Shown here: piece after piece, positions 8,371 through 52,664 of the stretch
How the letters are laid out: each line of letters opens with the position of its first letter
Numbering within the stretch: position 1 is the stretch's first letter
Origin: Squalus acanthias
Lineage: Eukaryota
Reading direction: 5' to 3'
Assembly (NCBI GenBank): GCA_030390025.1
Contig: CM059432.1
Span: 72,108,001 to 72,172,000, forward strand
DNA length: 64,000 bases
The notes under the pieces: model-generated
Database searches by the model: none
What the model saw: only the letters and a program-made list of their open reading frames with translations
Told to the model about the DNA's origin: nothing
Program-made: the position numbers and the translations under genes

Positions 8371-8384
8371 GTTGAATTTTTTTT

Positions 8385-8460: not shown

Positions 8461-8465
8461 CTAAC

Positions 8466-12575: not shown

Positions 12576-15500
12576 GGAGGAAAAATTTGTGTGCGCCATG
12601 AGAATTGCCGGTGTCATCGGCAACTCGAGTTAACGGCCGCTGAAAATGGCCGCAGCGCTACCGTTGAAAAATAAATGCTGGGCTTGGCAATATGGAGTGC
12701 AGCGCTAACTTACCATACAACGCCCTCCTGGTGGCGTTGATGGAGGCCTAGAACCCAAAGTTCCCGTCCACAGTCGGCGTTGCATCTTCTTACAGCCTGT
12801 GGGAGCGAGGCTGTGGAGTTCGCAAGGCATTGTGACCAATTAAAGGGGCTCTGAATTAAAGGGGCAATGCATTCAAAACTAATAAAAATTAAAAGCAAGT
12901 GAAAAAATGCATTTTTCAGCCCTTACAGCCTTTCAAAAAAAACGTAAATATTAAAAATAGTTCCCAATTGTCAGTCTTCAGCTCTTAAAGCTGGATTGTC
13001 TTCCACACCTAAAAAAAAAAATGGCTCAGCAAGCCAGGGAAGGGGCACCCAGGGTCTCGCCCACAGTACTCCAGCTTCGTGCAGGGGCTCAACTCTTTGA
13101 GAGAGGTCCTCTACCCACAGGGGGCAGGAGGCCCTCCAGAAAGGATGTGGGACCAGATAACTGTGGCCGTCACTGCCAGCAGTGTCGCCCCCACCACCTG
13201 GCTCCAGTGCCCAAAGAAGATTCATGACCTCAGGCCAATGGTCAAGGTCAGTCATCTTCAAGAGCCATCTCCTACCAACTGCATCACCAGCCTCACACAC
13301 TGCTCAATGCACGACTCCGCCCCCCTGCCCCGTCAACCACTCACACACTGCTCAATGCACGACTCCGCCCCCCCACCCCATCAACCACTCACACACTGCT
13401 CAATGCAAGACTCCACCCCCGGCCCCATCAACCACTCACACACTGCTCAATGCACGACTCCGCCCCCGGCCCCATCAACCACTCACACACTGCTCAATGC
13501 ACGACTCCGCCCCCACCCCATCAACCACTCACACACTGCTCAATGCACGACTCCGCCCCCCCACCCCATCAACCACTCACACACAGCTCAATGCACGACT
13601 CCGCCCCCCACCTCATCAACCACTCACACACTGCTCAATGCACGACTCCGCCCCCCACCCCATCAACCACTCACACAGCTCAATGCACGACTCCGCCCCC
13701 CACCCCATCAACCACTCACACACTGCTCAATGCAAGACTCCACCCCCGGCCCCATCAACCACTCACACACTGCTCAATGCACGACTCCGCCCCCCCACCC
13801 CATCAACCACTCACACACTGCTCAATGCACGACTCCGCCCCCCACCCCATCAACCACTCACACACTGCTCAATGCAAGACTCCACCCCCGGCCCCATCAA
13901 CCACTCACACACAGCTCAATGCACGACTCCGCCCCCCACCTCATCAACCACTCACACACTGCTCAATGCACGACTCTGCCCCCCACCCCATCAACCACTC
14001 ACACACTGCTCAATGCACAACTCCACCCCCGGACCCATCAACCACTCACACACTGCTCAATGCACAACTCCACCCCCGGACCCATCAACCACTCACACAC
14101 TGCTTAATGCATGACTCCGCCACCCCCACCCCGTCAACCACTCACACTGCTCAATTCATGACTCCGCCCCCGCACTGTCAACCACTCACAGACTGCTCAA
14201 TGCATGACTCCGCCCCCGCCCCGTCAACCACTCACACACTGCTCAATGCATGACTCCGCCCCCCCGCCCCGTCAACCACTCACACACTGCTTAATGCATG
14301 ACTCCGCCCCCACCCCGTCAACCACTCACACACTGCTCAATGCACGACATGGCCCCCGCCCTGTCAACCACTCACACACTGCTTAATGCATGACTCCGCC
14401 CCCACCCCGTCAACCACTCACACTGCTCAATGCATGACTCCGCCCCCGCCCCGTCAACCACTCACACACTGCTCAATGCACGACTCCGCCCCCCCGCCCC
14501 GTCAACCACTCACACACTGCTCAATGCATGACTCCGCCCCGCACTGTCAACCACTCACAGACTGCTCAATGCATGACTCCGTCCCCCGCCCCGTCAACCA
14601 CTCACACACTGCTTAATGCATGACTCCGCCCCCACCCCGTCAACCACTCACACTGCTCAATGCATGACTCCGCCCCCCCGCCCCGTCAACCACTCACACA
14701 CTGCTCAATTCATGACTCCGCCCCCGCCCCGTCAACCACTCACACTGCTCAATGCATGACTCCGCCCCCCGCCCCGTCAACCACTCACGCACTGCTCAAT
14801 GCACGACTCCGCCCCGCCCTGTCAACCACTCACACACTGCTTAATGCATGACTCCGCCCCCACCCCGTCAACCACTCACACTGCTCAATGCATGACTCCA
14901 CCCCCCCGCCCCGTCAACCACTCACACACTGCTCAATTCATGACTCCGCCCCCGCCGTCAACCACTCACACTGCTCAATGCACGACACCACCCCCACCCC
15001 GTCAACCACTCACACACTGCTCAATTCATGACTCCGCCCCCGCCCTGTCAACCACTCACACACTGCTTAATGCATGACTCCGCCCCCGCCCTGTCAACCA
15101 CTCACACACTGCTTAATGCATGACGCCGCCCCCGCCCCGTCAACCACTCACACACTGCTCAATGCATGACTCTGCCCCCGACCCGTCAACCACTCACACA
15201 CTGCTCAATGCAAGACACCACCCCCACCCCCCCACAATCACTCACCTACCAACAATCTGTACCAATCTCGAGGCACATCTCCCATTCCTAGCCTCACCTC
15301 ACCCCCTTGGAGGAGACGGTGCAGGTCATTCTTGGCAGGGGCATGGCTGAGCACTTCGCCAGCGGCAGGGCAGAAAGGATACAAGATACAGGTATCCTCA
15401 TATGTTATCCTCCTTCTGGCAAGCAGCTCTTGCTTTTCCGCCCTCCCCTCACCACAACTCCACCCTTGTGCCTTCCTCCTTTCACACACCCAAGGAATCC

Positions 15501-16749
15501 AGGCTGCCCAGCCAGTGGTTGCCCAAAAAGAGGGAGAGGAGAGTAAAGAAAAAGATGAAGGAGAAGAAGAAGGAGAAGAAGATTGATTTGACAATCCCAG
15601 CCACCAGCTCCTCAAGGTCGACCAGCAAGGCCATTTGCAGTGTACCCCACTGGAAGTCAGCAACCTACCACTAGCCATGCTGCAGCCACTGGGATAGCAC
15701 TGCATGACACCAGTAGGATAGGCAAAGGCACACACAGAAGACAGTCACTAACAGAATGCATGAGGATGATGAGTTGATTTCTTGATGTCATATTGGATGA
15801 ATAGAGGTATAAAGTTGGATTGGAAAGTTTGCTTTGAGGTGGCTTTTATTTCAGCATCGTGGCCAAGAGGACACTGTGATGGTCAGTAACAGAGTGAAGG
15901 TCAGGTGTGGGAGAAATGTTGAAAGGGGAATTGGGGTTGTGTTCACTGGTACCACAGGCAGATGATTCCATCCAGGATATCCCGGCCAGAAAGGGGCTGT
16001 CTGGGTTGCATCCTTCCTTCTGCTTCCTCCTCTTCTGCTTCCTCCTCTTCTGTTTCCTCCTCTTTTGCATCTTCCTCTCCTGTGTCTTCCTCTTCTGTGA
16101 CTTCCTCTTCCCTCAGCGTGTGAATGCTGTAAATCTGAAATGACTGCATAAAATGTTGGAAATACTCAGCTGGTCAGGCAGCATCTTGACCTGAGAAGTG
16201 AACTCTGTTTCTCCCTCCATGGATGTTGCCTGACCTGCTGAGTAATTGCAGCATTTTCTGTCTTCTTAAAGGCCTTCCTTTACCATCCAAGGCCTTGCAA
16301 GCATCCAGCAGCACTCCCTACACACTTAAAAAACTTTTAACATGTATTGCAGCAACCCACAACTTCAATAAAATTAAAAATACCCAGTCCAAAAGCTTAA
16401 ATGCAAACTTATGTGAAAGATGTGTGTGTCCCTTTAAGAGGTGCTGACAGTGCCTCTGTGAGTCTGCTTGCTCACTAGATTTACCTGGCGTGCTTAGGAC
16501 CCAGCACTGAACTTAGCGCTAAGGTCAAAGTTCAGGGTGGTGACGTTAAGTCGGCATTGCACGACAACTGGCATCACCACTCTACCATTTTTCTTTCAGG
16601 CCGCTACTTTGGAATGGCAGCGTTACCGGGAGGTTGAAAATGATGGACGCCGCAGGACCCACCGCCAGCTGGCGGAAGAGTGGCCGCTGCCACTTTCTTC
16701 ACTTAACGCCGCGCTAACGACTGGTGCCAAGGTAGGGAATTTTTGCCCC
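12576..16749 (+). mobile_element. Internally deleted Harbinger derivative ('Myb-only' family, copy 1) inserted in the MROH1-like pseudogene
   Basis: Ends ggaggaaaaattt / aatttttgcccc; TSD ACG/ATG. Myb-like exon at 13021-13250 (WDQITVAVTASSVAPTTWLQCPKKIHDL). Acidic transposase C-tail on the minus strand at 15943-16110. Confidence 0.85.
13292..15225. repeat. Minisatellite, ~44-bp unit, roughly 44 copies
   Basis: Unit approximately cactcacacactgctcaatgca(c/t)gactccgccccc(ca/cg)ccc(a/g)tcaac; produces the spurious H/P/T-rich ORFs. Confidence 0.97.
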
Positions 16750-18265
16750 ATGTTTTTATTAGGCTGAGCTTTAATGTGAGATCTCTGGATTGAATCTTTT
16801 TCCCCTGCCCACTTGTAATGAATTGATTAACCACAACTGGCAGAATGTGGGTCTCAATTATGGACAGCATTAGTTCCTCAGGTGTGTAGAATGCCATGTT
16901 CCCATAACACAGAACCAGTGTGCTCTTGGCTTTATCCAAATCCACATCAGGCTTGACCCGAAGAATATTCAAGAAACTTTTAGTTTTCTTAAATCTGTTG
17001 GAGTTAGCAAACTCCTCCAGGCTACTGAGGGTATCATCAAAGTGTGTAATAGCACAGAAACCAATGGCGAGAGCTGCTCCCTCTCTCTCCGCACTCTCAC
17101 TGTGCTGCACACTCAGTAGCATTTGGTGAAGCTCCTCCTTTATATTCTTAGTGCAGGTCTGATGGAAAACTGTCGCAAGAGATTTATAGAGAAAGCCCTT
17201 CTCTTGTGGGGAAAGATGGTTGGTGTCGATCTGTTTCCATATTTCATCAGCGAGCTGACATGTCCATTCCTCGCCATCAATGGTATTCAGAGTTCTGGAC
17301 AAGACCAGCAATAATTTCTCCTCCCATTCCCATTAGGCCAGAGACTCCTCTGAATTCTGCAGTAATTCGTCAACCAATGATGGCAGCTCCTCTTCCCACC
17401 CATCACTGTTGCTGGGTGGATACTGAGGTTTAGGACATTAGCCTCAGTGCCGCAGCTCCTTGGCTTCCTCCTTGATATGGGCAACAAGACACAACGAGGA
17501 GCTGGGTCAGCAGTGCCTGGGCTTTAGGGAGATTGGCATCTTCATTGTAAGTGAGGAAAAACTTTCACTGCCGGCTTGCAGTTTCTTTTTCCCAAGATGT
17601 ACTCAACAATTACAGATTGTTGTTAAAGCCTTGGTGTACTGGGTCAGTGACAAACTCCAGTAAGAATGGCCAAAGACATCCTCCATCTTCACTGCAGTTG
17701 TGATCATACACATCACTGTTTCAAATACTGTGACTATGTCTTCATCTGTTACCTGGTCTGGCTGATGATTGGGTGGTACCAGGGTCCCTGAATCAACGGA
17801 TGCAGCACACTGTTGGATGATGAATTCCACCATCGCCTTTCCTCCCTCTGGCTCAAGGTAACCTTGTTGGGCCATGACACATATTACTTGGGCAATTAGC
17901 TTCTTCTCCTGTTTACAGCTGTTGTCCAGGAGCACTGGTTTTATGGCGGCCACAATCTGAGCCTTCTTCGTCAAAGTGCGAAGAGACCGATATAATGAGG
18001 TGTTCCTACTCTCATTTGTTGGTCAGCATTCTCTAACTGGGATAGAAGGAATTTGACCAATGAGTCTGCGTAAACTGGGGCCAGAACTCTGAAACAGCAA
18101 AGGATCTGATTGTGTTTCTTCACAGAAAGATGGTTATTAGACCCCACCAAAACACACATCTGCTGGTGGAAACTTTTAAGCAGATTGTCCATCTGTGACA
18201 ACATCCAGTACCCGGCATAGACACTCTGATGGAAAAATGCCCTGGTTGTTTCTTGTAGAGAAAGA

Positions 18266-18724
18266 AAAACTTCATTTATATAATGCCTTTCACGACCACC
18301 AAATGTCCCAAAGCGCTTTACAGCCAATTAAGTACTTTTGAAGTGTAGTCACTGTTGCAATGTAGGAAATGCAGCTGCCAATTTGCGCACAGCAAGCTCC
18401 CACAAATAGCAATGTGATAATGACCAGATAATCTGTTTTTGTTATGTTGATTGAGGGGTAAATATTGGCCAGGACACCAGGAATAACTCCCCTGCTCTTC
18501 TTCGAAATAGTGCCATGGGATCTTTATACGTCCACCTGAGAGGGCAGACGGGGCCTCAATTTAACGTCTCATCTGAAAGACAGCACCTCCAACAGTGCAG
18601 CACTCCCTCAGCACTGCATTGGAGTGTCAGCCTAGATTTTTGTGCTCAAGTCTTTGGAGTGGGACTTGAGCCCACAACCTTCTGACTCAGAGGCGAGGGT
18701 GCTACCCACTGATCCACGGCTGAC
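18266..18724 (-). mobile_element. tRNA-derived Deu-domain SINE (SacSINE1-like)
   Basis: tRNA-like head gtcagccgtggatcagtgggtagc...ggctcaagtccc, Deu-type core and L2-like tail. Removing it restores GILS-FYKK in the MROH frame. Confidence 0.85.
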
Positions 18725-20639
18725 AGAAAGACAGGATGCCTGGAACTAACCTGGGCAGCTCTTCCTCCAGTGTGTCCTTGGGCAGCAGGGAGATGATATA
18801 GCCTAGAGCTTCCACTATTGGGATCTTCAATTCAGAGGACTCCTTCTCAAGCCTCACCTTGAACAACAGACTATAGACAGTGTTGATCCCAGTGGAGAAA
18901 GACTCTTTAGTCACTGTAGGGTCTGAAGCTTTCTCCACATTTCCCAGATAGATCAGGATGCTCTTGCTAAAACTTCCCATTGCTGAGGCAAATGCAGACC
19001 TCAGTTCAACCTGTTTAACACCAATGAGAACTGGAATCATGGTCCTTAAGATAGATTTTAGTAAAGGCACCAATGCCATATACATTTTCCATTGACATTT
19101 TTGTTAAGGTCTTCACATGCAGAAGGTGCCGTTGTTTGAAATTCTTTGTTGTCAACTGGACAACTTCATTTCTGAACCTGAAGCTCATGGCAACCAGAAG
19201 ATTGCTGGCAGCTTCCTGGCTGTCAGCTTGTGCTCTTGTTAGCAACGTCATCCACAGTGCAGCCAAAGAGATAACTTTCTCAGCTAGTACTGGGCTAATT
19301 TGATCAAGGGTGTCCTTGATAATCATCGCCATGCTCTCCAATACTTCAACCTCCTGTGGAACTATTCGTATGGTGTGGTGGCACAGATAGTCACGGCAGC
19401 TCATTCACACTATTTCTGGGTGCTGATGCCCCAGTGTGTGGAGGGTCTTTGATATTTTCTTCTGACAACTTTCATCTTCCTCAGCAATCATCTTCACGAG
19501 GGCAACTGAGAATGATTCCACGTTGAAGTACATTTTAGTAGTCTTTCCAGAGCCCACTAGTAATTTAGAATTGCTCACTTCAGTATGTCATTGTTACTGC
19601 CCTCTCACTAAGCTGTCTGATACACTCTCAGCAGCTCCGTCCTGTTTACTCTAAATTCTACTACTCTTCAATCTGAAGAAATGTTTTCACCCAATAATTT
19701 CTGTGAGTAATGATCAATTAAAGACTGTCTTTGTTCACTCACTCACAGTCTGAAATCAGATCTCTGCTTGGATAATTCTTTCCTCTCTGACTTCTTTCTC
19801 TCCAGTAATTAATGTTCCTTCTATTTAGATAGATTTGATGAATGCACTTGTTTTTAAGCTCTCCCTTTGTTGCTCTCTCATGCACAAATGCACAGTTTGT
19901 ACCACTTTGCTGTATTTTGTCCTCCCCTGCGGTTTCTGTGTTTCCATGGTTTTCATTGTGAGGCCAGGTTGCATAACCCCTCAGTTGTGATGTTGACCTG
20001 AGTCATGTGCCCATATAATTCCTGCCAGCTGTTTGTGGCAGTTTCAGGTGGGTGGTGGGGGTTACGGCCCAGACCTGAGATACAGACCATACTGACAAGG
20101 CAACATTCGCAACCCTTGGCAGCCATATTGGATCGAGCAGCTGTTTGTTCCTAATAAAGAACCCACCACACCACACACTCTCAAAGCACACATGACAAAT
20201 GATGTAGAAATGAGAGTGTAGGACAGACATTTCTAGCAAAATTACCCGCAAACTGGGATGTTCATGTGACTCAAATCAATTTTAAATACACCAGAAATAA
20301 AAGATCTGAGCTCACAAGATCATTCCGGGGTTAGAATGGGAAAGCATAATTTCCAGCCCAGGTAATAAGGCTCCTTCACTCCAGTAGGGTAGTTTCAAAT
20401 TATAGGGAACGGGTCAGATACTATTTGCATTTGACTAGAAAGGATGATTTTATAATTCCTGAGTAAACACGGTTGTGGGTTTGTACGTTCATCACCATCT
20501 AAACAAATGATTCCACTTCTTTCATTTGTGCGTTGACAGGAAGTAAACTCCAAAGGGATTGAAGCTGCTTCATGATGTCACGAGAAAGTTGTTGTGACAT
20601 CAGAGCAGTCCATTGTGACATCAGAGCACTTGTTCTACT

Positions 20640-21005: not shown

Positions 21006-23799
21006 TCATAGCAACAGGAGGAGACCATTCAACCCCTTGGGTTTGCTCTGCCATTCACTTAGATCATGGGTGATCTGCACCTCAACTCAATTTACCTGCC
21101 TTTGCTTCATATTCCTTGATACCCTTACCTATTAAGATTCTATCTATCTCAGTCTTGAAAGCTCCAATTGTCCTAGAATCCACAGCCCTTTGGGGGAGAG
21201 AGTTATGGATTTCCACTACCCTTTGTGTGAAAAAGTGTTTCCTGATTTTACCCCTGAATGTCCATGCTCTAATTTTAAGATTATGGGAGAAAAATTTGTG
21301 TACGCCAAGAGAATTGCCGGTGTCACCGGCAACTCGGGTTAATGGCCGCTGAAAATGGCTGCAGCACTACCGGGAAAATATTTGTGCTGGGGGCTGGCGA
21401 TGTGTAGCACAGTGCTAACTTATCCTGCAACGCCCTCCTGGTGGCATTAATGAAGGCCTCCGACTCAAAGTTCCCATCCACAGTCGGCTTTGCAGCTTCT
21501 TACAGCCTCTGGGAGCGAGGCTGTGGAGTTCGCAAGGCATTGTGGGCAATTAAAGGGGCTATGAATTAATCGGCAATGCATTCAAAACTAATCAAAATTA
21601 CAATGCAGTGAAAAAATGCAGCTTTCAGCCCTTACTGCCTTTCAATAAAAAAATTACCATTAAAAAGAAATCCCAATTGGGATTCTCCAGCACTTAAAGT
21701 TGAATTCCCTTCCGAACCTCAAAAAATGGGAAAAGTGCTTCAGCACTAACACGAATAGCTCAGCAAGCCAAGGAAGGGACACCCAGGGTCTCGCACGCAG
21801 TCCTCCAGCTTTGTGCAAGGGGTCAACACTGTAAGCTAGGTCCTCTACCCACAGGGGCCAGGAGGCCCTCCAGAAAGAACGATGTGGGACCACATCACCG
21901 AGTCTGTCATGGCCAGCAGTGTTGCCCCCACCACCTGGCTCCAGTGCCCAAAGAAGCTTCATGACCTCAGACCACTAGTCAAGGTCAGTGAATACATCTT
22001 TAAAAGCCGTCTCCTACCAACTGCATCACTAGCCTCACACACTGCTCAGTGCATGATTCCTCCCCCCCCCAATCACTCATGTACCAACAATCTGTACCAA
22101 TCACAAGGCACACGTCCCATTCATAGCCTCACCTCACCTCACCCCCTTGGAGGAGATGGTGCAGGCCATTCTTGGCAGGGGCATGGCTGAGCCCTTGGCC
22201 AGCAGCGAGGCTGCAAGTATATACGATGTTGGTATCCTCACACGTTCTCCTCCTCCTGGCATGCACCTCTTGATTTCCCGGCTTCCCCTCACCATAACTC
22301 CACCCTTGTGCCTTCATCATTTCACACACCCAAGAAATGCAGCCTGCCCAGCCAGTGGTTGACCAAGAAGAGGGAGAGGAGAGAGAAGAAGAAGATTGAT
22401 TTGACACTCGCAGCCAACAGCTCCTCATGGTCAACCAGTAAGGCCCACTGTGTCCCCCACTGAAAGTTAGCAGCCTTCCACCAGCCATGCTGCAGCCACT
22501 GGGGTAGCACTGCGTGACATCAGTAGGATAGGCAAAGGCTCACTAAGGGAATGCACAAGGGTGATGAGTTGATTTCTTGATGCCATATTGCATGGATAGA
22601 TGTATAAAGTTGGATTGGAAAGTTTGCTTTGTGGTGGCTTTTATTTCAGAATTGTGGCCAAGAGGACAGCTGTGATGGTCAGTAACAGAGTGAAGGTAAG
22701 GTGTGGGACTAATGCTAAAAGAGGAATTAGGGTTGTGGTCACTGGGACCGCAGGCAGATGATTCCATCCCGGATTTCCCAGCCAGAAAGGGACTATCTGG
22801 GATGCATCCTTCCTTCTGCTTCCTCCTCTTCAGCTTCCTCCTCTTTTTTTTCTTCCTCTTCTGTGTCTTCCTCTTCCCTCTTTAAGCGGATGCTGGAAAT
22901 CTGAAATGAAAGCATAAAATGCTGAAAATACTCAGCTGGTCAGGCAGCATCTCGACTTGAGATGTGAACTCTGTTTCTCTCTCCATAAATGTTGCCTGTT
23001 GACTATTTGCAGCTTTTCTGTCTTCTCAGAGGCCTTCCTTTACCATCCAAGGCTTTGCAAGCATCCAGCAGCACTCCCTACACACTTAAAAAAACTTTTA
23101 ACATCTATTGCAGCAACCCACTACTTCAATGAAATAAAAAAAAACAGTCCAAACATTTAAATTCAAACTTACCTGAAAGATGTATAAATAAGGTTGGTGA
23201 GCTGCAGGCGCAAATAGATACATGGAAATATGATGTTGTGGCGATAATGGAGACCTGGCTCAAAAAAAGGACAGTATTGGGTTTTAAATATTCCTGGATA
23301 TAAGGTGTTCAGGAAAGATAGGGAAGGAAGGAAAGAAAGGAGGTGGAATGGCAGTATTGGTTGAGGAGAATGTTACAGTGCTGGAGAGAGAGGATGTTCT
23401 GGAGGGGTCAAGGACAGAATCTATTTGGTTGGAGTTAAGAAATAATAGAGGTGCCATTACACTACTAGGTGTATTCTATATGCCACCAACTAGTGGGAAA
23501 AATATAGAGGAGCAAATTTGCAAGGAAATTACAGAGAGGTGCAAGAACTATAGAGTAGTAATAATGGGGGACTTCAATTATCCTAATATAGACTGGGATA
23601 ATAATAGTGTAAAGGGCAGAGATGGGGAAGAATTTCTGAAGTGTGTTCAGGATAACTTTGTTGATCAGTACGTTTCCGGCCCAATGAGGAAGGGTGCATG
23701 AACAGAGAGACCTGGGGGTATATGTGCACAAATTGTTGAAGGTGGCAGGGCAGGTTGAGAAAGCGGTTGAAAAAGCATTCGGGATACTGGGCTTCATAA

Positions 23800-26970: not shown

Positions 26971-29223
26971 GGGCTAAAGATTCGGGGGCTTTACACCACC
27001 CGTTACCGTCAAAAAACAATGAAAAGAGGGTGGCCGCCGCTCTTTCATCAGCTGGTGGTGTGTCCCGCAGCGTCCTCCATTTTCCCAGGTCCGGCAGCGC
27101 TGCCGGTAAGATCCATCGCCCTACAAAGTAAAATGAGGGAGCGGTGACGTCAGATGTCAGAGTTCAGCACTGGGTCCTAAGCTCGCCAGGTAAACCTAGC
27201 ATGCAAGCAGACTCACAGAAGTGCCGTCAGCACCTCTTAAAGGGGCTCACACATCTTTCAGGTAAGTTTACATTTAAGCTTTTGGACTGGATTTTTTTGA
27301 TTTTACTGAAGTAGTAGCTTGCTGCAATAGATATTAAAAGTTTTTTTTAATGTGTAGGGAGTGCTGCTGGATGCTTGCAAGGCCTCGGATGGTAAAGGAA
27401 GGCCTCTGAGAAGACAGAAAAAGCTGCAAATACTCAGCAGGTCAAGCAACATCCATGGAGAGAGAAACAGAGTTCACATCTCAGGTCAAGATGCTGCTGA
27501 CCTGCTGAGTATTTCCAGCATTTTATGCTGTCATTTCAGATTCACAGCATCCGCTCACAGAGGGAAGAGGAAAACGCAGAACAGGAAGAAACAGAAGAGG
27601 AAGAAGCCGAAGAGGAGGAAACAGAAGAGGAGGAAGCAGAGCAGGAGGAAGCAGAAGGAAGGATGGAACCCAGACAGCTCCTTTCTGGCTGGGATATCCG
27701 GGATGGAATCATCTGCCTGCGGTCCCAGTGACCACAACCCCAATTACCCTTCCAGCATTAGTCCCACACCTTAACTTTCCTCTGTTACTGACCATCAAAG
27801 TGTCCTCTTGGCCACAATGCTGAAATAAAAGCCACCACAAAGCAAACTTTCCAATCCAACTTTATACATCTATCCTTCCAATATGACATCAGGAAATCAA
27901 TTCATCTCCCTTATGCATTCTCTTAGTGACTGTCTTGTGTGTGCCTTTGCCTATCCTACTGATGCCACACAGTGTTACCCCAGTGGCTGCAGCATGGCTG
28001 GTGGAAGGCTGCTGACTTTTAGTGGGGGGGCACTGCAAATGGCCTTGCTGGTTGACCTTGAGCAGCTGGTGGCTGGGAGTGTCAAATTGAGTGACGGTGT
28101 TTCTTCTTCTTCACTCTCCTCTCCCTCTTCTTGGTCAACCACTGGCTGGGCAGGTTACATTTCTTGGGTGTGTGAAATAAGGAAGGCACAAGGGTTGAGT
28201 TGTCATAAGGGGAGGGCGAGAAAGCAAGAGCTCCATGCCAGAAGGAGGATAACGTATGAGGATACCAGCATCTTGTATCCTTTCTGCCCTGCCACTGGCC
28301 AAGGGCTCAGCCATGCCCTGTCAAGAATGGCCTGCACCGTCTCCTCCAAGGGAGTGAGGTGAGGCTAGGAATGAGAGGTGTGCCTAATGATTGGTACAGA
28401 TTGTTGGTAGGTGAGTGATTGGGTGGCGGCGGGGGGGGGGGGGGGGGGGGACAGGGGAGTCATGCATTGAGCAGTGTGTGAGGCTAGTGATGCAGTTGGT
28501 AGGAGACGGCTTGTGAAGATGCGTTCACTGTCCTTGACCAGTGGTCTGAGGTCATGAAACTTCTTTGGGCACTGGAGCCAGGTGGTAGGGGTGACACTGC
28601 TGGCAGTGACAGCCTCGGTGATCTGGTCACACATCCTTCTTTCTGGAGGGCCTCCTGGCCCCTGTGGGTAGAGGACCTCTCTTGCAGTGTTGACCCCCTG
28701 CACAAAGCTGGAGTGCTGCATGCGAGACCCTGGGTGCCCTTTCTCTGGCTTGCTGAGTCATTTGTGTTAGTGCTGAAGCACTTTTCCCATTTTTTGAGGT
28801 TTGGAAGGGAATTCAGCTTTAAGTGCCGCAGACTCCCATTTGGGATTTCTTTTTAATGTTAATTTTTAACGGGAGTATGGGCTGAAAACTGCATTTTTTC
28901 ACTTTATTTTAATTTTTATTAGTTCTGAACACATTGCCCTTTTAATTCATTGCCCTTTTAATTACCCACAATTCCTTGCGAACTACATAACCTCGCTTCC
29001 AGAGCCTGTTAGAAGCTGGAACGCTGCTCCTGGACGGGAACTTCCACTTCCATGCCTCCACTCACATCACCAGGAGGGCGTTACACAGTAAGTTAGCGCT
29101 GGCCTAAAAATCTTTAGCCCCCAGCGCCAATTTTTCCCTGGTAGTGCTTCGTCCATTTTCAGCGGCCTGTTAACCCAAGTTGCCGTTAACCCAACTCTCG
29201 TGGCGGCCACAAATTTTTCCCCC
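26971..29223 (-). mobile_element. 'Myb-only' Harbinger derivative, copy 3 (inverted, uninterrupted ~2.25 kb)
   Basis: Reverse-complement colinear with copies 1 and 2; ends gggctaaagatt / aaatttttccccc; TSD unclear. Confidence 0.85.
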
Positions 29224-29449
29224 AGTCTGATTCTATTATATTCTATGATTTCCCCAGCATTACTGCTAGCAACCTGGGAGAAAAGTAAAGTTTTGCACCT
29301 GTGGTTTTCACCTGCACACTTCCTTCCCTGCTACTCTGACCCATGCTCCCAGTAATGGTTGGGGGGATGGGTGGGGGGGGTGGTGCGCGGGGGAGGCATA
29401 AACACAAACCTGGCCTGACCCTCTCCAAATTCATCAGCAAAAGATGCTG

Positions 29450-30292
29450 GGGGCGATTTTCCCAGCCCTGGGGAGGAGGGTTTGGAGGCGGGACTGCCGG
29501 GAAAATGGCAGTATCTGGGAGCAGGTACCCATCCTGCCCCCAACCCGCCTCCATGCCATCTTCCCAGGAGGCGGGTACCCGACCCGCGCCAGGTCCCGTC
29601 TCCTCGAGGCGGGAAGGGGATTAGTGCCAATTAACTGCCTGTTAACAGGTAGTTAACAGGCAGTTTTTTTGCTAATTCCTATTTTGAGCCCTAAAGTGTA
29701 GGCTTCCCGACAGCTCCGAACCTCGCCAGGGTCAGCGAGGGGAGCCGTGGGTCTGCAGGGGTCGGAGGGGCCGAAAAGTCCGGTGTGCAGGTGAGTGATG
29801 AATGCAAGTGTAGCGAGGTAAGTGTGTGAGGTGAGTCTAAAGTGTTTAATAAGATTACTTACCTTTGCTTCTTCCTCCAGGCTTCATCCCTTTAGGCTGC
29901 GGAGGCTCCTCATCTCCACGGCAGAGATGACAGAATGGCTGCTGCATTCTCTGCTGCAACAGCCATCTGATTTCTGCTCAGGAAAGCTTTCTAAGTGAGT
30001 CTTGAGTACAAGGACTCACCAAACAACAGAGAATGTCACTGTTTGACAGCTTCACAGAGCTGTCAAACGATGACAATTCATCTGTCAAAATTTTTTGACA
30101 GATGAAACGTCATATGCTGACATTCTCTGTCACCGGCTTTCCCTTAATTGGCCGGCTAAGCCCGCTGGGCAGGCTTAACAAGGCCAATCAAGGGAAAATA
30201 GCGTGGGTTGGCCGGACGTCGATGGAGTCAGTGCTAAAACCTGACGAGCAGCTTTCCTGCCTCCATCACATCCCCATTCATAAAATCACCCC
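29450..30292. mobile_element. Harbinger-type MITE (family shared with 38293-39118, inverted)
   Basis: Ends ggggcgatttt / aaaatcacccc; internal segments are reverse-complement homologous to 38293-39118. Confidence 0.8.
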
Positions 30293-32637: not shown

Positions 32638-32641
32638 TAAT

Positions 32642-33385
32642 GGCCCAGAAATTGATCTCGCTCTGTTCCCGCGGGGGTAAGCCTTTCCCGCGATGTCTCA
32701 CCTCGCTTATGCTTTTTCTGATCCAGCTCGCACGAAATTGATGTTCTGGACAGCTGCTGTGCTGGGCTTGCGTATCCCAGCGGCGTAGTTAATTCGTGCG
32801 AGCTGTGGGATCACGTGACTCAGTTAGAGCCAATGGCAGCACACCATCTTCCATTCATAAGTCTCACAGCATGGCTGAGAGACTTATGAATCTTACACCC
32901 CCCCAAAATAACAGCTAAACCTCAATTAAATTTAAAAAAAAACCCATCACATTAATAAAATAAGTATAGTTAATTAAATTAACCATTTTAAATAAAAAAT
33001 TAAATTTTTGAAAAAATTTAAAATCTTTTAAAAAGTTATAAAAATAAACTTACCTGTCTTTAAAGTCTATAAAAAAGATATACCTGTAAAAAAAAATTCA
33101 AAAAAATACTTAATTCACTACTTACCTTCTTAAAAGCGGGTCTTACTCCTCCTTTTTACATTTCCAAAATCTTCAGTACTTACCTGCGCGTCCAAAGCAT
33201 GAAGTGCACAGCGTGCGCGCAGCCTGTAGCGCGCACGCGATGCACTCCGGCCCCGCCCCCTTTTCGGAAGAGCAATTGCCGGTTTTCAGCGCATGCGCAG
33301 GGCATGCAGAAAACCGGCAATTGGAGTGGGAATACGCGAGAGTATGCAGTGCGTACTCTCGCGTCCGGGGATCAATTTTCGGCCC
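32642..33385. mobile_element. Hairpin-rich Harbinger-type MITE, copy 1
   Basis: TIRs ggcccagaaattgatc / gatcaattttcggccc; perfect AAT TSD (32639-32641, 33386-33388). Confidence 0.88.
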
Positions 33386-34449
33386 AATGTCAATTGGGGC
33401 AGCACCCCATAATGTGCCTGAAGACCGCTCCAGTTGTTGAGCCAAGTATATCCAGTACCCTAGCCATCTGAATCATTCCCATCACTGTTCACAGAATTTC
33501 ATTAGCATCCATGAATGCAACCGCATTTCTGCACATATTCACTACTGTCCCAAATAAACTTTGCAGACACAAAAAAATCCTATTGAGACCAAATTTTGTT
33601 CATCTTACAATTTGTGGCGCAACTGTACTCCGTGTGTTTCCCCCCAGTGATCCTATTTAGTGTCAGTGCATGGTGAGCATCTTCTACTTCCTAAATGTTT
33701 ACTCCTTCTAAGTGTTTTCCCAGTGGGAGGAGAACATGAGGTAGATGGCTGTTGAATGTGTTTGCTTCTAGGAATGGAAGTGCCCTTGGTGCTGGATCAG
33801 AAGATTAGCCCTACAAATGACACAGTTATTGTTGAGAGGTTTTTCTATGTTAAAGATGCAGGTTGTTGCTGTTGTTGCTGCTGCTGCCTGTATCAGTCTG
33901 CCGCCTAACACATCTGTAGTCATTTGAGCAGGGCGGTTGGGTGTTATGGGTGTGGGATCACCCTGAGAGACATCTCCACCAGCAGTGCCAGCTCCTGTCA
34001 TTTCCCCGCTGCTGGGCATTTCAAATGACGACATGAATTGTTGAAAGTTCCACATGAAAGACTATTAATTAAACTCAAAGTCGTGGAGATTCAAGGTAAA
34101 ACCTGGGAATGGATAAGAAACTGATTGAAAGGTAGAAAACAATGAGTACTTGTTAGAGGAGTGGGGGTGGGGGATACACTGAGTGTGGTGCCTCAGGGCT
34201 TGGTATTGGAACCACATAAATGGCTTCATTTCAGAAACTCAATACAAAGTGATCCAACTTGCAGAAATTACCAAATTAGGAATCAGAGGAGGCAGCTCAG
34301 AAATTACAGTTGAGTTGGATAAGCTTTGTAAGCGAGCAGAACAATGACAGATGAAATTTAATGCAGACAAGTGTGAAGTATTACACATAGGAAGGAAAAA
34401 TAGATGGCATACACACTACATGACTGGTGATGAAGCTGAAAGAGACATG

Positions 34450-35119
34450 GGGCTGGATTTTCATTGACCCGTGGAGGCGGGTTTGGAGGTGTGTGGGGGG
34501 TTAAAATTCCGAAAAGTGGTGGGCGGGCACAAGTCCGCCTCCATCCCGCCTCCACGCAATTTTGATGAAATCGTGTCTGTTGGTCCCGCCTGTGTCCCGC
34601 CTTTAAGAGACGGGATAGGCTGTTAAGGCCCTTAACAAGCACTAAATTGGCTCTATAATGCCATTTTGAAAGGCCTTTGTGATTTTAACCCTTGTTCTAT
34701 GTGAAGCACGCCTGGTCTGAAACACGATTGTGAAACCTGGCGGGAGCACATGTGGATAGCTGAATATCAGTGGCTGCGCTGAGTATCAGTGAGTGGCTGG
34801 CTGGCATCTGGGAGTGGTGGAGCAAAAAAAAATCTCTCTCTCTCCCCCCCAGATAGAGCTGCTGCTCATTTTGCATCCAGGTCCTCTCACAGCAAAGGCC
34901 AGGCAGTCTCTGACCTTCAATGCAGCATCAATGATGACATCATCAGAGGCGACTTTCAGACTGAAACCACTAATTGGTTCATGGGTTCACACATGCTGGA
35001 ACTCAATTGCCCAATTAAGTGAAAATTGCATCAATCTCCCACATCCAATTGCAGTCGGGTGGATAACACAAAATGCGGATGACACGACCCCAACCCGCCC
35101 CAGTATCAAAATCCAGCCC
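34450..35119. mobile_element. Harbinger-type MITE inserted in an old CR1 fragment (~34050-35950)
   Basis: TIR gggctggatttt / aaaatccagccc with ATG/ATC flanks. CR1 motifs (MKFNADKCEV; SPHLESCVQFWSP) lie on either side. Confidence 0.8.
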
Positions 35120-38292: not shown

Positions 38293-39118
38293 GGGCTGGA
38301 TTTTATGAATGGAGACGTGTTGGAGGTGGGACTGCTGCTTGCGCGGTTTCAGTCCCGCCTCCATCAGCTTCTGGCCAACCAGCGGGATTTTCCCCTGATT
38401 GACCTTGTTAAGCCCGCCCAGTGGGCTCAGCAGGCCAATTAGGGGGAAGTCAGTGACAGAGCACGTCAACGTCTGATGTGTCATCTATCAAGAATTTTTG
38501 AAAGAAGAAATGTCATCGTTTGACAGCTCTGTGAAGCTGTCAAACACTGACATTCTGTGTAGTTTGATGAGACCTTGTGTTCAGGACTCATCAAACCTTT
38601 CTACTTTGCAGAAATCAGCTGGCTGTTGGATCGGAGGATGCAACAGCCAGTCTGTGATCTCTACAATGAAGATGTCGGGGACTACGGCTCCACAGCGGCT
38701 GAAAGCTGTAGAGAGAAACAAAGGTAAGTTAACATTTTCTAACACTTTACACTCACCTCACATACTTACCACTCCACACTTGCACCCATCACTCACCTCT
38801 ACATCGCACTTTCAGACCCCCGCAGACCTCCTACTCACCTCCTACACCCCGGCGGGGTTCCCCCAGGTCGGGAAGCCTGCACTTCAGAACGAAAAATGGA
38901 GATAATCCTATTTTCTGCCTGTTAACAGGCAGTTAATAGGCTTTAATCCCTTCCCGCCTCTAAGGAGACGGGACCCGGGGCAGGACGGCTTCCCGCCTCC
39001 TGGCAAGAGGGCACAGAGGCGGGTTGGGGGCGGGTTTGCCACCCGCCCCCAAATTCTGCAACTTTCCCGGCAGTCCCGCCTCCATACCCGCCTCCTCGGG
39101 GCTGAGAAAATCTAGCCC
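38293..39118. mobile_element. Harbinger-type MITE
   Basis: TIR gggctggatttt / aaaatctagccc with a perfect ACA TSD (38290-38292, 39119-39121). Confidence 0.88.
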
Positions 39119-40171: not shown

Positions 40172-40358
40172 TAAAAGCAATTTTATTTTCTTGCAACACA
40201 CAATACAGTATAATCTAACACATATGAAAGCAAGAAAAATTTGTGTTTAAAGAGAGGAACGCATTTCTGGTATGCTGGTATTACATACTAAGATTTTCCA
40301 GTAGCAACACAAATGATAATAACTATGGGTAGGGCTCAAGTTCTGCCCAACCACCAAA

Positions 40359-42503
40359 ATGGACCCCATCGGTCTCGCGGCAGACACGGAGGAATTCATC
40401 AGGAGAATGAGGCTCCGGGAATACTTCCACAAATCCCAAGATGTCAGCAACAAACCCAATGAGACAATCAATGATCCAGAACAGCAGACAGAGGGACTCG
40501 CAGTGCAGCAACCGAAGAAAAAAGAGTCAAACTGGACCCCTCCGGAGGGTCGCTGCCCCAAGCTTGACATGTATGCTCAAGCTGTCAGGAAATGCATCAA
40601 CGCCAGATTCATCAGCCGCACTCACAAGACAGTCCAGAATGTCACCCGAGCACAACGCAACGCCATCCACGCTCTCAAGACCAACCGCAACATTGTCATC
40701 AAACCAGCGGACAAAGGAGGAGCCATCGTCATACAGAACAGAACGGACTATTGTAAAGAAGCATACCGACAACTGGACAACCAGGAACACTACAGACAGC
40801 TACCCGCAGATCCGACCAAAGAACACACCCGCCAACTCAATAGACTGATCAAGACCTTCGATCCAGACCTTCAAAACATCCTACGCGCTCTCATCCCACG
40901 TACTCCCCGCGTGGGAGACTTCTACTGCCTCCCAAAGATACACAAAGCCAACACACCCGGACGTCCTATCGTATCAGGCAATGGAACCCTGTGTGAGAAC
41001 CTCTCTGGATACGTCGAGGGCATTCTGAAACCCATCGTACAGGGAACCCCCAGCTTCTGTCGCGACACTACAGACTTCTTACAGAAACTCAGCACCCACG
41101 GACCAGTTGAACCAGGAACACTCCTTGCCACGATGGACGTATCGGCACTCTACACCAGTATCCCCCACGATGACGGCATCGCTGCAACAGCCTCAGTACT
41201 CAACATCAACAACAGCCAATCTCCAGACGCCATCCTACAACTCATCCGCTTCATCCTTGACCACAATGTCTTCACCTTCGACAACCATTTTTTTACCCAA
41301 ACACACGGAACAGCCATGGGGACCAAATTCGCACCCCAATACGCCAACATCTTCATGCACAAGTTCGAGCAAGACTTCTTCGCTGCACAGGACCTCCAGC
41401 CAACGCTGTACACCAGATACATCGACGACATTTTCTTCCTTTGGACCCATGGCGAAGGATCACTGAAAAGACTACACGATAACATAAACAAGTTCCATCC
41501 CACCATCAAACTCACCATGGACTACTCCTCAGAATCGGTCTCATTCCTGGACACACGAATCTCCATCAAAGACGGACACCTCAGCACTTCACTCTACCGC
41601 AAGCCCACGGACAACCTCACGATGCTCCACTTCTCCAGCTTCCACCCTAACCATGTTAAAGAAGCCATCCCCTATGGACAAGCCCTGCGAATACACAGGA
41701 TCTGCTCAGACGAGGAGGAACGCGATGGACACCTACAGACGCTGAAAAACGCCCTCATAAGAACGGGATATGACGCTCGACTCATCGATCGACAGTTCCG
41801 ACGGGCCACAGCGAAAAATCGCATAGACCTCCTCAGAAGGCAAACACGGGACACAACCAACAGGGTACCCTACGTCGTCCAGTACTTCCCCGGAGCGGAG
41901 AAACTACGCCATGTTCTTCGCAGCCTTCAACATGTCATCGATGACGACAAACACCTCGCTAAGGCCATCCCCACGCCTCCACTACTTGCCTTCAAACAGC
42001 CGCCTAACCTCAGAAGTACCATCGTTCGCAGCAAATTACCCAGCTTTCAGGATAACTGCGACCACGACACCACACAACCCTGCCATGGCAAACTCTGCAA
42101 GACATGCCAGATCATCAACACAGATACCACCATCACACGTGAGGACACTACCCACCAGGTACATGGTACATACTCATGTGACTCGGCCAACGTTGTCTAC
42201 CTCATACGTTGCAGGAAAGAATGCACCGCGGCATGGTACATCGGCGAGACCATGCAGACACTGAGACAACGTATGAACGAGCACCGCGCAACAATCGCCA
42301 GGCAGGATTGTTACCTCCCAGTCGGGGAACACTTCAGCAGTCAAGGACATTCAGCCTCGGATCTGCGGGTAAGCGTTCTCCAAGGCAACCTTAGAAACAC
42401 ACGACAACGCAAAATCATCGAGCAGAAACTGATAGCCAAGTTCCGCACTCATGAAGACGGTCTCAATCGGGATCTTGGGTTTATGTCACGATACATGACG
42501 TGA
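40359..42503 (+). CDS. Penelope reverse transcriptase + GIY-YIG endonuclease (714 aa open; the Met is probably internal)
   Basis: IKPADKGG, LPKIHK, GRPIVS, TMDVSALYTSI, GTAMG, RYIDD, FLD, LYRKPT, CHGKLCKTC, VVYLIRC...WYIGET, RQRMNEH, GLN. In-frame GLKFCPTTK upstream of the Met suggests a 5' truncation. Confidence 0.93.
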   Translation: MDPIGLAADTEEFIRRMRLREYFHKSQDVSNKPNETINDPEQQTEGLAVQQPKKKESNWTPPEGRCPKLDMYAQAVRKCINARFISRTHKTVQNVTRAQRNAIHALKTNRNIVIKPADKGGAIVIQNRTDYCKEAYRQLDNQEHYRQLPADPTKEHTRQLNRLIKTFDPDLQNILRALIPRTPRVGDFYCLPKIHKANTPGRPIVSGNGTLCENLSGYVEGILKPIVQGTPSFCRDTTDFLQKLSTHGPVEPGTLLATMDVSALYTSIPHDDGIAATASVLNINNSQSPDAILQLIRFILDHNVFTFDNHFFTQTHGTAMGTKFAPQYANIFMHKFEQDFFAAQDLQPTLYTRYIDDIFFLWTHGEGSLKRLHDNINKFHPTIKLTMDYSSESVSFLDTRISIKDGHLSTSLYRKPTDNLTMLHFSSFHPNHVKEAIPYGQALRIHRICSDEEERDGHLQTLKNALIRTGYDARLIDRQFRRATAKNRIDLLRRQTRDTTNRVPYVVQYFPGAEKLRHVLRSLQHVIDDDKHLAKAIPTPPLLAFKQPPNLRSTIVRSKLPSFQDNCDHDTTQPCHGKLCKTCQIINTDTTITREDTTHQVHGTYSCDSANVVYLIRCRKECTAAWYIGETMQTLRQRMNEHRATIARQDCYLPVGEHFSSQGHSASDLRVSVLQGNLRNTRQRKIIEQKLIAKFRTHEDGLNRDLGFMSRYMT

Positions 42504-43328: not shown

Positions 43329-44121
43329 GGCCCAAAAATTAGTGCCGCTACGCGAGAGTACGCACTGCGTACTCTCGCGTATTCTGTCTCCAATTGCCGG
43401 TTTTCTGCATGCACTGCGCACTCTCGCGTATTCTGTCTCCAATTGCCAGTTTTCTGCATGCACTGCGCATGCGCTGAAAACCGGCACTTGGTGAATGGAA
43501 AAGGGGGCGGGTCCTAGGTGAACCGCGTGCGCGCTACAGGCTGCGCGCACGCTGTGCACTTAGTGGTTTCAACGCGCAGGTAAGTACGGAAGATTCTACA
43601 CATAAAAAAAGGAGGAGTAAGACCCACTTTTAACAAGGTAAGTAGTGAATTAAGTATTATTTTGATTTTTTTTTAACAGGTATATCTTTTTTAGAGACTT
43701 TAAAGACAGGTAAGTTTATTTTTATAACTTTTTAAAAGATTTTAAATTTTTTCAAAAATTTAATTTTTTATTTAAAATGGTTAATTTATTTAACTATACT
43801 TATTTTATTAATGTGATGGGTTTTTTTTTTAATTTAATTGAGGTTTAGCGGTTCTTTTGGGGGGCTATAGTATTCATAACTTTCACAGCACTTATGTGAA
43901 AGTTATGAATGGAAGATGGTGTGCTGCCATTGGCTCTAACTGAGTCACGTGATCCCACAGCTCGCACGAATTAACTACGCTGGTGGGATACGCAAGCCCA
44001 GCACAGCAGCTGTCCAGAACATCAAGTTCGTGCGAGCATGAACTGAAAAAGCCAACGCGCAGTGAGAGATCGCGGGGAGGCCTTACCCTTGCACGAAGGC
44101 TTCCTCACGAATTTTTGGGCC
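43329..44121. mobile_element. Hairpin-rich Harbinger-type MITE, copy 2 (inverted relative to copy 1)
   Basis: TIR ggcccaaaaatt / aatttttgggcc with TAT/AAT flanks; internal ~49-bp tandem duplication at 43373-43470. Confidence 0.88.
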
Positions 44122-44284: not shown

Positions 44285-46501
44285 GTAGGTGGCGCATGAT
44301 GCACCCCAAGCACTGGTACATCCCCACCAATCCCTCCTGCTTCATTGGTGCAGTCTGCAGCCGGGCCCTCCAGGCCCAGAGCTGGTCGAGGGCGTCCTTC
44401 AAGGCCATCTGCAGTCTCTGGATCCAACATTCAGCAGCCTTCCACCAGCCTTGCTGCAGCCACTGGGGCCACATTACAGAGGAGCAGTAGGGTGGAAGTG
44501 CGCAGGGGATGGAGATCACCCTCAAAGGCCAAAAAGTAGAAATTATTAATAAATGGGGGGAATGTTTGTGGGAAAGTTTGATGTTCATCTTAATATATTT
44601 GTTTACTGTTTTGACGCTTATCTCGATGTTGTGAGAACGAGTTTTGTTAGTTTATGAATTGTTGGGTTTGTTTCTAATTGTTTGTCCTGAACAAATAAGA
44701 CAGAGTTTGTAATATAAATAAAAAAAATTATTGTTACTATACATCTTTGCTGATTTGACACATTGGAGCTTTGCCCAGCAATAGGGGCTGCGGGATGCTT
44801 GCGATGATGTGCTTCTTCTTCCCAGAAGCCATCTTCCCTGTAATTCGTTAGAAGCGGTGTCTTATCAGGCATTCACGGACTGCCCTTGCAGTGGCATCAT
44901 TGTGCGCCTCACTCCCATGTTGGTGCTGCTGATCCTCCTCTTCATCCTCCACCTCCTCCTCCTCCTCTCCCTCCTCCTGAGGTGGTGCACCAATCCCTGG
45001 TGGCAATGGCTGGGTCCTCATGCTTGCAATGTTATGAAGCATGCAGCACACAACAATGAAAAGCGAGACTCGCTCGGGAGAGTTACTGCAGGGCTCCTCC
45101 AGAGTGGTCAAGACACCGGAACCGTTGCTTCAAGACACCGATCGTCTGCTCATTGAGGTTCCTGGTGGTGCTCTGGCTATCATTGTATTGCAGCTCAGCA
45201 GGAGTGTTGGGGTTACGAAGTGGTGTCATCAGCCAGGTGCAGAGTGGATAACCCTTGTCCCCGAGAGCCATCCACGAGGTTGATTCGGTGGTTGGAAGAG
45301 GTCTGGGACACCAGTCTGGTGCAGGATAAAAGCATCGTGGCTGCTGCCAGGATAGCGAGCATTGACGGCGAGGAAGCGCTGTCTGTGGTCACACACCAAC
45401 TGGACATCAGAGAGTGGAAGCCCTTGCGGTTTCGGAACACCTCTGTATTCTCATGAGGTGCCCGTAATGCCACATGCGTGCAGTCAATGGCGCCCTGAAC
45501 CATGGGGAAGCCCGCTATCCTAGCAAAGCCACATGCACATTCGCGTGGTTTGTCCTGGGTCATGGGGAAAGAGATGTACTGCCTTCTCCTTTTGTACAGA
45601 GCATTTGTCACCTCCCGGATGCAACAATGGACAGCGAACTGGGAGATTTTCGCTATGCCCCAGTTGAAGCCTGGAAGGAGCCACTGGCATAGAAATTCAG
45701 AGCCACCTTCACCTTCACAGCCACCGACAGACACGTCCTGGTCCTGAGCTGAGGCTGCAGGTATGGTTGCAGGAGGTGGCAGAGCTCAGTGACCACCTCC
45801 TTGCTGAAGTGCAGCCTTCGGAAACACTGCTCCTCAGTCAAATGAATGTAGGAGAATTGCTCCCGGAATACCCTGGGAGGGTAAGGTCTCCTGTGCAGAG
45901 GCCTGTTGGCCCTCCTCCCTCTGGCCACATTTGCCACTCTCTCTCTGCGCCTCTGCTGCCTCCGAAGGTGAAGCTGGAGGATGACGCCCCGAATTAGTAC
46001 AACTCCCATAAAATCTTCTAAATGTGCTAAATATGAAGCTCAGATAAATAGGAACCTCAAAAGTGGTGCAGAGGACCCAAACTCCTTGGGACAGCATTAA
46101 ATCTCTCCAGACATCTCTCTCCCTCTCAACCTGTGTATACCAAAAATTTTGCCAACAAGAAAAGGCAGGAAGCGCCCGCCTTTAAATAGCGCTCCCCCAG
46201 CCCCTTCCCGACTTGAAAACGTTCCCCTCTACCTGTCATACCTAGCGGCAGGCGCTAAGGCAGGGGGCGCGACTCAATTTCCGGTCCGGGGTACTACCGG
46301 GGCATTGCATGCTTGCATGATGTCACGATCTGCGGGCGCAGGAGATCGTGGCGGTAGTGTTTAGCGCCACCGCAAAACGACAGGTCAATTTTGCGAGTGG
46401 GGCTAAAATCGTCATGCTCGGGCGCTAAGTTGCGAGCGCCCCATTAGCACCCCACCCCGGGGGCGCTAACGGGAGGTGCTAACCAACCAAATTTTTCCCC
46501 C
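44285..46501 (-). mobile_element. One-ended PIF/Harbinger transposon with transposase
   Basis: Right TIR ccaaatttttccccc at 46487-46501. The left part holds only the Myb-gene tail (cf. 15600-15700) and no left TIR is seen. Confidence 0.8.
44848..46009 (-). pseudogene. Harbinger (HARBI1-like) transposase, full length but frameshifted
   Basis: [77 protein letters not shown] and CCMLHNIA plus an acidic tail, in four frames. Confidence 0.9.
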
Positions 46502-51926: not shown

Positions 51927-52664
51927 GGGCCAGAAATTCAGCTCTCCAGCTTCCCACGGGTGCAAGAATCGCGCGCGTACTTACCTAGCGCGCCTGCCGT
52001 TGTGCTTCGGTCCCGCGTGGAATTCGGCTCCTGGGCCTCCTGCAGCTGCCGGCGCGCAGTGCTTGCGTATCCCAGGGGCGCAGTTAGTTCGAAGCGTCCC
52101 CTGGGATCACGTGGGCCATGGAGAGCCAATCGGAGCAGGGAATCTTCATTCATAGATTTTGACAGGAAGACCTGTCAAATCTATGAATAGAGATCGGCCC
52201 CAAAACCTCACTAAAACTTCAAATAAATAAAAAAAAAATCACATAAATTAACTACCTTAAACAAAAATTTAAATTTTTGAAAAAATTAATTACACTTTTT
52301 AACGGTGCTAAAAATAAACTTACCTTTCTTTAAAGTATGTTAAAAAGATAAACCTGTTGAAAAAATGTTTAAATTGTACTTAATTCACCACTTACCTTGT
52401 TAAAAGCAGGCCTTACGCCTCCTTTTTTCCTGCGCAGCTTCTCCGTACTTACCCTCACGGAGAATCCTAAAAAAAAACCGAAGTTTGCTGCGTGCGCGCT
52501 GCCTCTCCAGCGCACGCGTTCGACCTCTGAACCCCTTCCTTCAGGGGAACGGAAGTTCCGGTTTCCAGCACATGCACAGTGCATGCACGAAACCGGCACT
52601 TTCGTTGGGTCTACGGGTGAGTACACAGCGCGTACTCACCCGTGGAGACCCGAATTTCTGGCCC
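51927..52664. mobile_element. Hairpin-rich Harbinger-type MITE, copy 3 (diverged subfamily)
   Basis: TIR gggccagaaattc / gaatttctggccc with ACT/AAT flanks; same order of motifs as copy 1. Confidence 0.85.

Follow-up and report, generated by a model that had tools for sequence, protein, structure and literature searches.

A Harbinger-type MITE family in Squalus acanthias with jointly changing inverted-repeat arms, possibly kept matched by DNA-level homogenisation

The window analysed here is a 64-kb stretch of repeat-rich vertebrate DNA that carries CR1- and L2-like fragments and Harbinger-type remnants. An uninterrupted 726-aa frame at 40323–42503, with a reverse transcriptase domain (RVT_1) and, by eye, a GIY-YIG-like C-terminus, reads as a young Penelope-like element. 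A long decayed copy of a Maestro HEAT-repeat (MROH-like) gene, apparently intronless and interrupted by transposons, lies on the minus strand at 10099–19404 (HEAT_Maestro E 8.6e-49). Our subject is a family of MITEs, family 1, of which a BLAST search found three full copies in the window and no other.

Copy 1 (32642–33385, plus strand, 744 bp) is flanked by an exact 3-bp target site duplication, AAT, at 32639–32641 and 33386–33388 on the plus strand. Its left terminal inverted repeat (TIR; 32642–32657, plus strand) matches the right TIR (33370–33385, minus strand) at 13 of 16 positions, and positions 13–16 are copy-specific and match at both ends. Copy 2 (43329–44121, 793 bp, flanks TAT/AAT) lies on the minus strand, inverted relative to copies 1 and 3, an orientation that the initial annotation of this DNA did not give; it contains a 49-nt tandem duplication at 43362–43469, between the centres of the stems termed A and B below. 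Copy 3 (51927–52664, plus strand, 738 bp, flanks ACT/AAT) is about 31% diverged, and its TIR is extended to 22 nt (20/22 matching). The three copies are collinear end to end. Copies 1 and 2 differ at 96 of 744 aligned sites, and copy 3 differs from copies 1 and 2 at 224 and 229 of 715 sites, respectively. All comparisons in this report rest on the copies inside the window, three of family 1 and two of a second family.

Family 1 is a non-autonomous Harbinger-type (PHIS) MITE built from two transposon ends, with TIRs, a 3-bp duplication and no recognisable coding frame; the feature set used for this classing comes from PMC4482050 and PMC9710019. The TIRs, 12–22 nt long and starting with GG in all three copies, are of the short PHIS kind, given in PMC4482050 as less than 60 bp and starting with A or G. 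The 3-bp duplication is exact in copy 1 and is retained at two of three bases in copies 2 and 3. Compared with a previously proposed target motif, the flanks of every family 1 copy agree at 3 of 4 positions, and those of three other MITEs agree at 3, 4 and 4 of 4. The triplets are not the TWA of strict PIF/Harbinger elements: AAT, TAT/AAT and ACT/AAT fit A-N-T, which the same source describes as the Pangu/IS5-type triplet (PMC4482050). We therefore place the family at the PHIS level and not in one PHIS group. Two frames of at least 120 aa overlap copies 1 and 3 and have no Pfam match, and transposase or Myb-like coding capacity is absent. By BLAST, family 1 matches none of the Harbinger-type elements in the window that could be its autonomous parent, and pattern scans for further copies in metagenome, viral and prokaryote genome contigs returned no matches.

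Several other Harbinger-type elements share the window. A broken transposase gene with a TIR end lies at 44860–46501 on the minus strand (DDE_Tnp_4 E 2.9e-10 and 2.3e-05), and a Myb/SANT-like gene remnant lies at 8949–9356, also on the minus strand (Myb_DNA-bind_5 E 2.3e-11); no homologues of the latter were found among longer proteins. Both remnants show a TIR pattern similar to that of family 1, though family 1 matches neither, and the transposase-bearing element is not its direct parent. At 7528–9356, a transposase-like fragment on the plus strand and the Myb-like remnant on the minus strand point towards each other, the layout that promoters at the two element ends would give. A 531-bp MITE at 762–1292, with a perfect 14-bp TIR and a TAT duplication, matches at its left end the TIR end of the transposase remnant (46317–46501) over 181 nt at 70%, so that such MITEs are end derivatives in this window. 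A further Harbinger-type MITE of 670 bp lies at 34450–35119 (TIR 13/14). A Harbinger family bearing a Myb-like gene is present in three copies (12570–16500, 21285–23150 and 27160–29225), one of which has a 46–47 bp tandem array in its apparent first intron (about 13250–15290); two of the three copies have a dyad with a 1-nt centre about 30 bp inside the TIR.

The second MITE family, family 2, is unrelated to family 1 and consists of copy a (29450–30292, plus strand) and copy b (38293–39118, minus strand, target site duplication ACA/ACA), which are 76% identical and mutually inverted. It has its own dyads, at least eight in number, with compensated changes, two CCAAT-like boxes in inverted arrangement and a run of donor-like words similar to that of family 1. 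In copy a, one palindrome arm has been duplicated and extended (29632–29666); at 14 of 15 positions its sequence is that of the left arm in reverse complement.

In copy 1 of family 1 the order is left TIR, stem E, E-box- and CCAAT-like words, stem D, an AT-rich core, stem C, a GC-box-like word, stem B with an inner dyad, stem A and right TIR. All of the stems quoted in the initial annotation were recovered in the three copies, with A and D located and B and C in the same order throughout; stem E was not listed there. Stem E (32774–32811) has a core of 6–7 bp that becomes 10 bp and perfect in copy 3. It is followed on the plus strand by a putative promoter-like block at 32812–32834 (52108–52130 in copy 3), composed of what we take to be an E-box-like hexamer and a CCAAT-like box; the spacing between the two words is 12 nt in every copy, even in copy 3, where the spacer sequence itself has been replaced. 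Stem D (32853–32891, 43872–43910 and 52148–52188) is the most variable stem. The AT-rich core (32915–33185) holds on the minus strand three conserved putative 5' splice-donor-like words, at 33049, 33121 and 33179 in plus coordinates, and a putative acceptor-like T-tract-AG at about 33084–33098. These donor- and acceptor-like features occupy one strand in each copy (32915–33185, 43580–43720 and 52315–52455), and the donor-like words number 4, 3 and 5 per copy against 0.35 per kb per strand elsewhere. Stem C (33203–33246) has a 10-bp core that is unchanged in copies 1 and 2; copy 3 shows a 2-nt loss and new inner pairs. Stem B (33273–33323) encloses a dyad with a 1-nt centre, which in copies 1 and 2 is presumably an NRF1-like word. 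The subterminal stem A (33334–33364, 43349–43381 and 52613–52643) is likewise a dyad with a 1-nt centre, and in copy 3 it carries two compensated transversion pairs.

Conservation along the element is patchy. Between copies 1 and 2 the divergence is 3% in the promoter-like block, 4% in the core, 11% in the stems and 30% in the other spacers, and between copies 1 and 3 it is 27% in the stems versus 49% in the spacers. A recombinational mosaic was considered and rejected because conserved and diverged blocks alternate every 20–50 nt, and purifying selection on the blocks in the source lineage would fit this pattern better than recombination does. A specialist would still find it surprising that a non-coding lineage conserves promoter-like words, donors and pairing block by block. 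CpG is undepleted inside the elements, with an observed/expected ratio of 1.1 as compared to 0.41 in the window.

The stems exceed what base composition would give. Perfect stems of at least 9 bp number 6, 5 and 5 in copies 1–3, and in each copy AT-rich palindromes in the core account for one or two of them. Forty local dinucleotide shuffles of each copy gave means of 0.70, 0.85 and 0.45, with a maximum of 3, and each of four control regions has none. Five short inverted repeats are kept in order across the three copies. With hand-registered arms, Watson–Crick changes on both arms affect 2, 9 and 7 of 73 pairs in the comparisons 1/2, 1/3 and 2/3, against null means of 0.33, 1.75 and 1.26 (P 0.029, 1e-5 and 1e-5), where the pairwise comparisons are not independent, the stems were picked after inspection and the samples are three and two copies. 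When the structure was taken from copy 1 alone and the copies were aligned with MAFFT, 9 of 73 pairs had changed on both sides, compared to 3.7 in shuffles (0/500 reached this value) and 0–3 in slid registers, a control that ignores relatedness and uses three sequences only. Stem D contributes 2–5 compensated pairs per comparison, counted after one bulged base was dropped from copy 3, and an alternative alignment with an inserted G-C pair and a deletion lowers its count by one or two. One stem D pair has three different Watson–Crick states in the three copies. In family 2, 4 of 98 pairs are compensated (null 0.90, P 0.007). The joint change of both arms claimed at the outset is thus above chance and recurs in a second MITE family, and the accompanying proposal that pairing is either selected or actively regenerated is supported by the same excess.

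The stronger wording of that proposal, that pairing rather than sequence is maintained, holds only in part. Double changes do exceed chance, but 64, 55 and 57 of the 73 pairs are unchanged in the three comparisons and the stems diverge less than the spacers, so the wording is overstated. With 7 pairs per comparison changed on one side only, the unchanged pairs indicate that sequence and pairing are both kept. Constancy of this kind would be expected if the stems were symmetric binding sites for a dimeric protein, either the Myb-like partner or a host factor, with subfamilies co-evolving with proteins of differing specificity. The word TGACA, which occurs 9 and 6 times in family 2 and also in stem D of copy 3, is in line with such sites, as is a stem B flank word that recurs in the dyad of the Myb-bearing family; there is also a precedent in the Harbinger3_DR Myb-like protein, which binds a 9-bp subterminal motif (PMC9710019). 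We nevertheless regard binding sites as an unlikely full explanation. The three-state pair in stem D behaves as a position that is not read by a protein, no single motif is common to the five stems, and new paired extensions appear in free spacers.

A structured RNA, suggested by the initial annotation, finds little in its favour. If the element were transcribed, the stems could act in a structured non-coding RNA, a small-RNA precursor or the leader of a spliced transcript that uses the donor cassette. The strong folding (z from −4 to −8), the promoter-like words at fixed spacing, the donor-like words on one strand and a G.U-containing extension of stem E on the plus strand would all suit such a transcript. 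Folding is, however, alike on the two strands, with z of −6.2/−6.4, −4.2/−4.3, −6.6/−8.3 and −7.4/−8.3, and mismatches show no G.U bias: of 219 core stem cells, 203 are Watson–Crick, 3 are G.T on the plus strand, 2 are G.T on the minus strand and 11 are other. All compensated changes run from Watson–Crick to Watson–Crick, and 5 of 9 (copies 1/3) and 5 of 7 (copies 2/3) are transversion pairs that have no path through G.U. The dyad centres are 1 nt in stem A and in the core of stem B, 0 and 2 nt in family 2, and again 1 nt in the dyad near the TIR of the Myb-bearing family; several dyads are complementary right up to the axis. A strand-specific structure that tolerates G.U was seen in one place only, the stem E extension, whose G.U-only pairing on the plus strand persists in every copy, one U-A pair having become U.G; its bases overlap the E-box-like word, and the donor-like words lie on the opposite, minus strand. 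No Rfam family matches the window at gathering score, and the best matches are generic hairpins far below threshold (25.2 bits versus 80).

A miRNA precursor was rejected, as the stems are short, only 16–18 bp. Sequencing runs that contain words of the stretch fill 20 rows among the matches listed, from nine studies, with half of the words or more in five rows, and runs containing parts of the stretch come from at least four coded organisms. Eight runs guessed to be RNA contain 0.29–0.34 of the sampled words and two recorded as RNA contain 0.05–0.07, and we give such small shares no weight as evidence; intronic read-through would explain RNA matches in any case, and a non-autonomous DNA element needs no RNA to move. 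Given also that the TIRs co-change, we consider a role of the stems in RNA very unlikely.

The same strand symmetry and Watson–Crick-only pairing fit a DNA structure as well as they fit repair. Hairpins may be selected as DNA structures if cruciforms or single-strand hairpins aid transpososome assembly, exclude nucleosomes or help to complete gap-repair copying, such that the lineages that pair amplify best. The five stems keep their position and order over 31% divergence as the spacers reach 30–50%, compensation exceeds chance in two families, and the spacers show no template-switch footprints. Moreover, copy 3 has lost the innermost pairs of stem A, which are those unable to form in a hairpin. 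Against selection for hairpins, the Harbinger-type MITE at 34450–35119 has no perfect stem of at least 9 bp, which indicates that the stems are not general, one family 2 stem decays, and TIR extensions and a left-end 9-mer co-change outside any local hairpin. We consider selection of the hairpins as such less likely than not. A broader form of the idea is no more probable: non-autonomous Harbinger lineages of cartilaginous fish may have been selected for a structure-level array of cis-elements, namely several hairpins or cruciforms of which some positions are read by their pairing and not by their sequence, along with a conserved promoter-like block and donor cassette, and amplification of these MITEs might then depend on an intermediate that is folded as a single strand or transcribed.

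The co-change outside hairpins bears directly on repair. The two TIR ends are about 700 bp apart and co-change like the internal stems: at TIR positions 13–22, the ends match within a copy at 5, 4 and 8 of 10 positions versus 1–5 (mean 3.2) between copies, and 3 of 16 TIR pairs are compensated between copies 2 and 3 (P 0.0085). A 9-mer specific to copy 3 occurs at the left end as well as in each arm of stem A (P about 0.01), and in copy 3 stem A has gained 6 bp on its outer side (P 0.003). Several compensated changes within one stem, as in stem D, and stem extension, the two features looked for in template switching, were both found. Over all 15 stem flanks, 49 pairs were counted versus 40.3 expected (P 0.003). 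The differences between copies 1 and 2 are clustered (37 adjacent versus 15.2), with a transition/transversion ratio of 0.50, where 8 pairs of background repeats give 1.45 (P 6e-5), a clustering and low ratio that saturation of free spacers between selected blocks would explain equally well.

Other expected marks of repair were scarce. None of the family 1 mutation clusters (0/16, 0/16, 0/33 and 0/33) is explained by a nearby reverse-complement template in a search that is blind to changes present in both arms. The same search in family 2 explained 3 of 37 and 1 of 36 clusters, about the chance rate and including one clear case, with none in four controls. Inversion of the stem D loop was rejected, with 9 differences in either orientation. 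About half of the compensated changes in both families are transition pairs (3 of 4 in family 2), which is not distinguishable from the 61% given for rRNA in PMC8794818. Stem G7 of family 2 has decayed in one copy, with 4 of 14 pairs broken, which indicates that repair is not constant.

Our preferred explanation, to which we give about an even chance, is that the stems are symmetric cis-motifs of transposon ends that are kept matched by DNA-level homogenisation, through template switching in replication or in donor-gap repair. The stems would be symmetric arrangements of conserved end motifs, putative sites for the Myb-like protein, the transposase or host factors, and purifying selection in the source lineages would maintain them. 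A mutation at a free position in one arm would then be copied into the other arm, most probably by template switching while the element is single-stranded during replication or repair of the excision gap, and the same process may match the TIR extensions. Pairing would on this account be a by-product regenerated in DNA and not the mark of a functional RNA. The extension of stem A, the 22-nt TIR, the family 2 arm duplication, the 49-nt slippage duplication and the clustered transversions are counted as repair footprints and suggest such a process. We arrive at this weighting, an even chance for homogenisation, a smaller one for selected DNA hairpins, a low one for binding sites and the lowest for RNA, by setting the footprints seen against those sought but absent and by allowing for spacer saturation.

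Cut-and-paste elements amplify through such repair, and their source lineages therefore meet gap repair repeatedly. Several earlier reports supply the individual steps. Template switching turns imperfect inverted repeats into perfect ones (PMC5941160), and it can both give rise to stems and preserve them, with several compensatory changes, an extended stem or an inverted loop as the outcome (PMC8794818). In yeast it is characteristic of break-repair synthesis (PMC12891019), and it has been proposed to act between the ends of MITEs while the donor gap is repaired (PMC3814204, PMC4168063). The wording 'not expected' for a cut-and-paste MITE was for this reason too strong, since it is already described that template switching corrects short inverted repeats (PMC5941160, PMC8794818), is tied to break-repair synthesis (PMC12891019) and takes place between MITE ends in gap repair (PMC3814204). 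A partial literature search, which took in PMC2836001, PMC8437027 and bioRxiv 10.64898/2026.05.26.728016, turned up no account of Harbinger MITEs whose internal dyads co-change.

If homogenisation is correct, DNA repair in transposon lineages can produce covariation, which is usually taken as proof of RNA structure, and family 1 would be a clean warning case; abundant MITE families would then offer thousands of replicates for measuring repair-written covariation. Should the structural reading be true instead, MITE amplification would have an identified cis-requirement that is testable in existing Harbinger transposition assays and that bears on the long-open question of why some deletion derivatives reach high copy number.

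Family 1 is an element of known type, and the likely mechanism is already known as well. Helitrons and Helentrons, which move by rolling circle, leave no target site duplication and have asymmetric ends, carry 3' hairpins whose pairing outlasts their sequence. Family 1 resembles them in its subterminal DNA hairpin, and a Helitron or Helentron assignment was rejected because TIRs and a 3-bp duplication are present. The closest systems are the Tourist-like/PIF/Harbinger (PHIS) non-autonomous elements, among them rice mPing, zebrafish Harbinger3N_DR and short Harbinger-Snek derivatives. They are alike in their short GG-start TIRs, 3-bp duplication, lack of a coding frame, repeated subterminal motifs and two-gene (DDE and Myb-like) relatives in the same genome, as described in PMC4482050, PMC9710019, PMC2836001 and PMC8437027. 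Family 1 differs from them in its A-N-T rather than TWA triplet, its five co-changing internal dyads, and its conserved donor cassette and promoter-like blocks. Template-switch correction of quasi-palindromes to palindromes likewise yields perfect Watson–Crick double changes, several per stem, with stem extension and arm duplication (PMC8794818, PMC5941160). It is known from rRNA, microRNA and bacterial inverted repeats, and we infer it here for a vertebrate MITE lineage, in which neither loop inversion nor a cluster footprint was found. In the origin of Goblin from Ozma in Aedes aegypti, as reported in PMC3814204, MITE ends were rewritten by template switching in abortive gap repair, and if the two inverted ends of family 1 were likewise copied from one another while the donor site was repaired, the copy-specific extension of its TIRs would be accounted for. 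Goblin differs from family 1 in being a Tc1/mariner derivative and in recording a one-off origin event rather than the continued upkeep of internal dyads.
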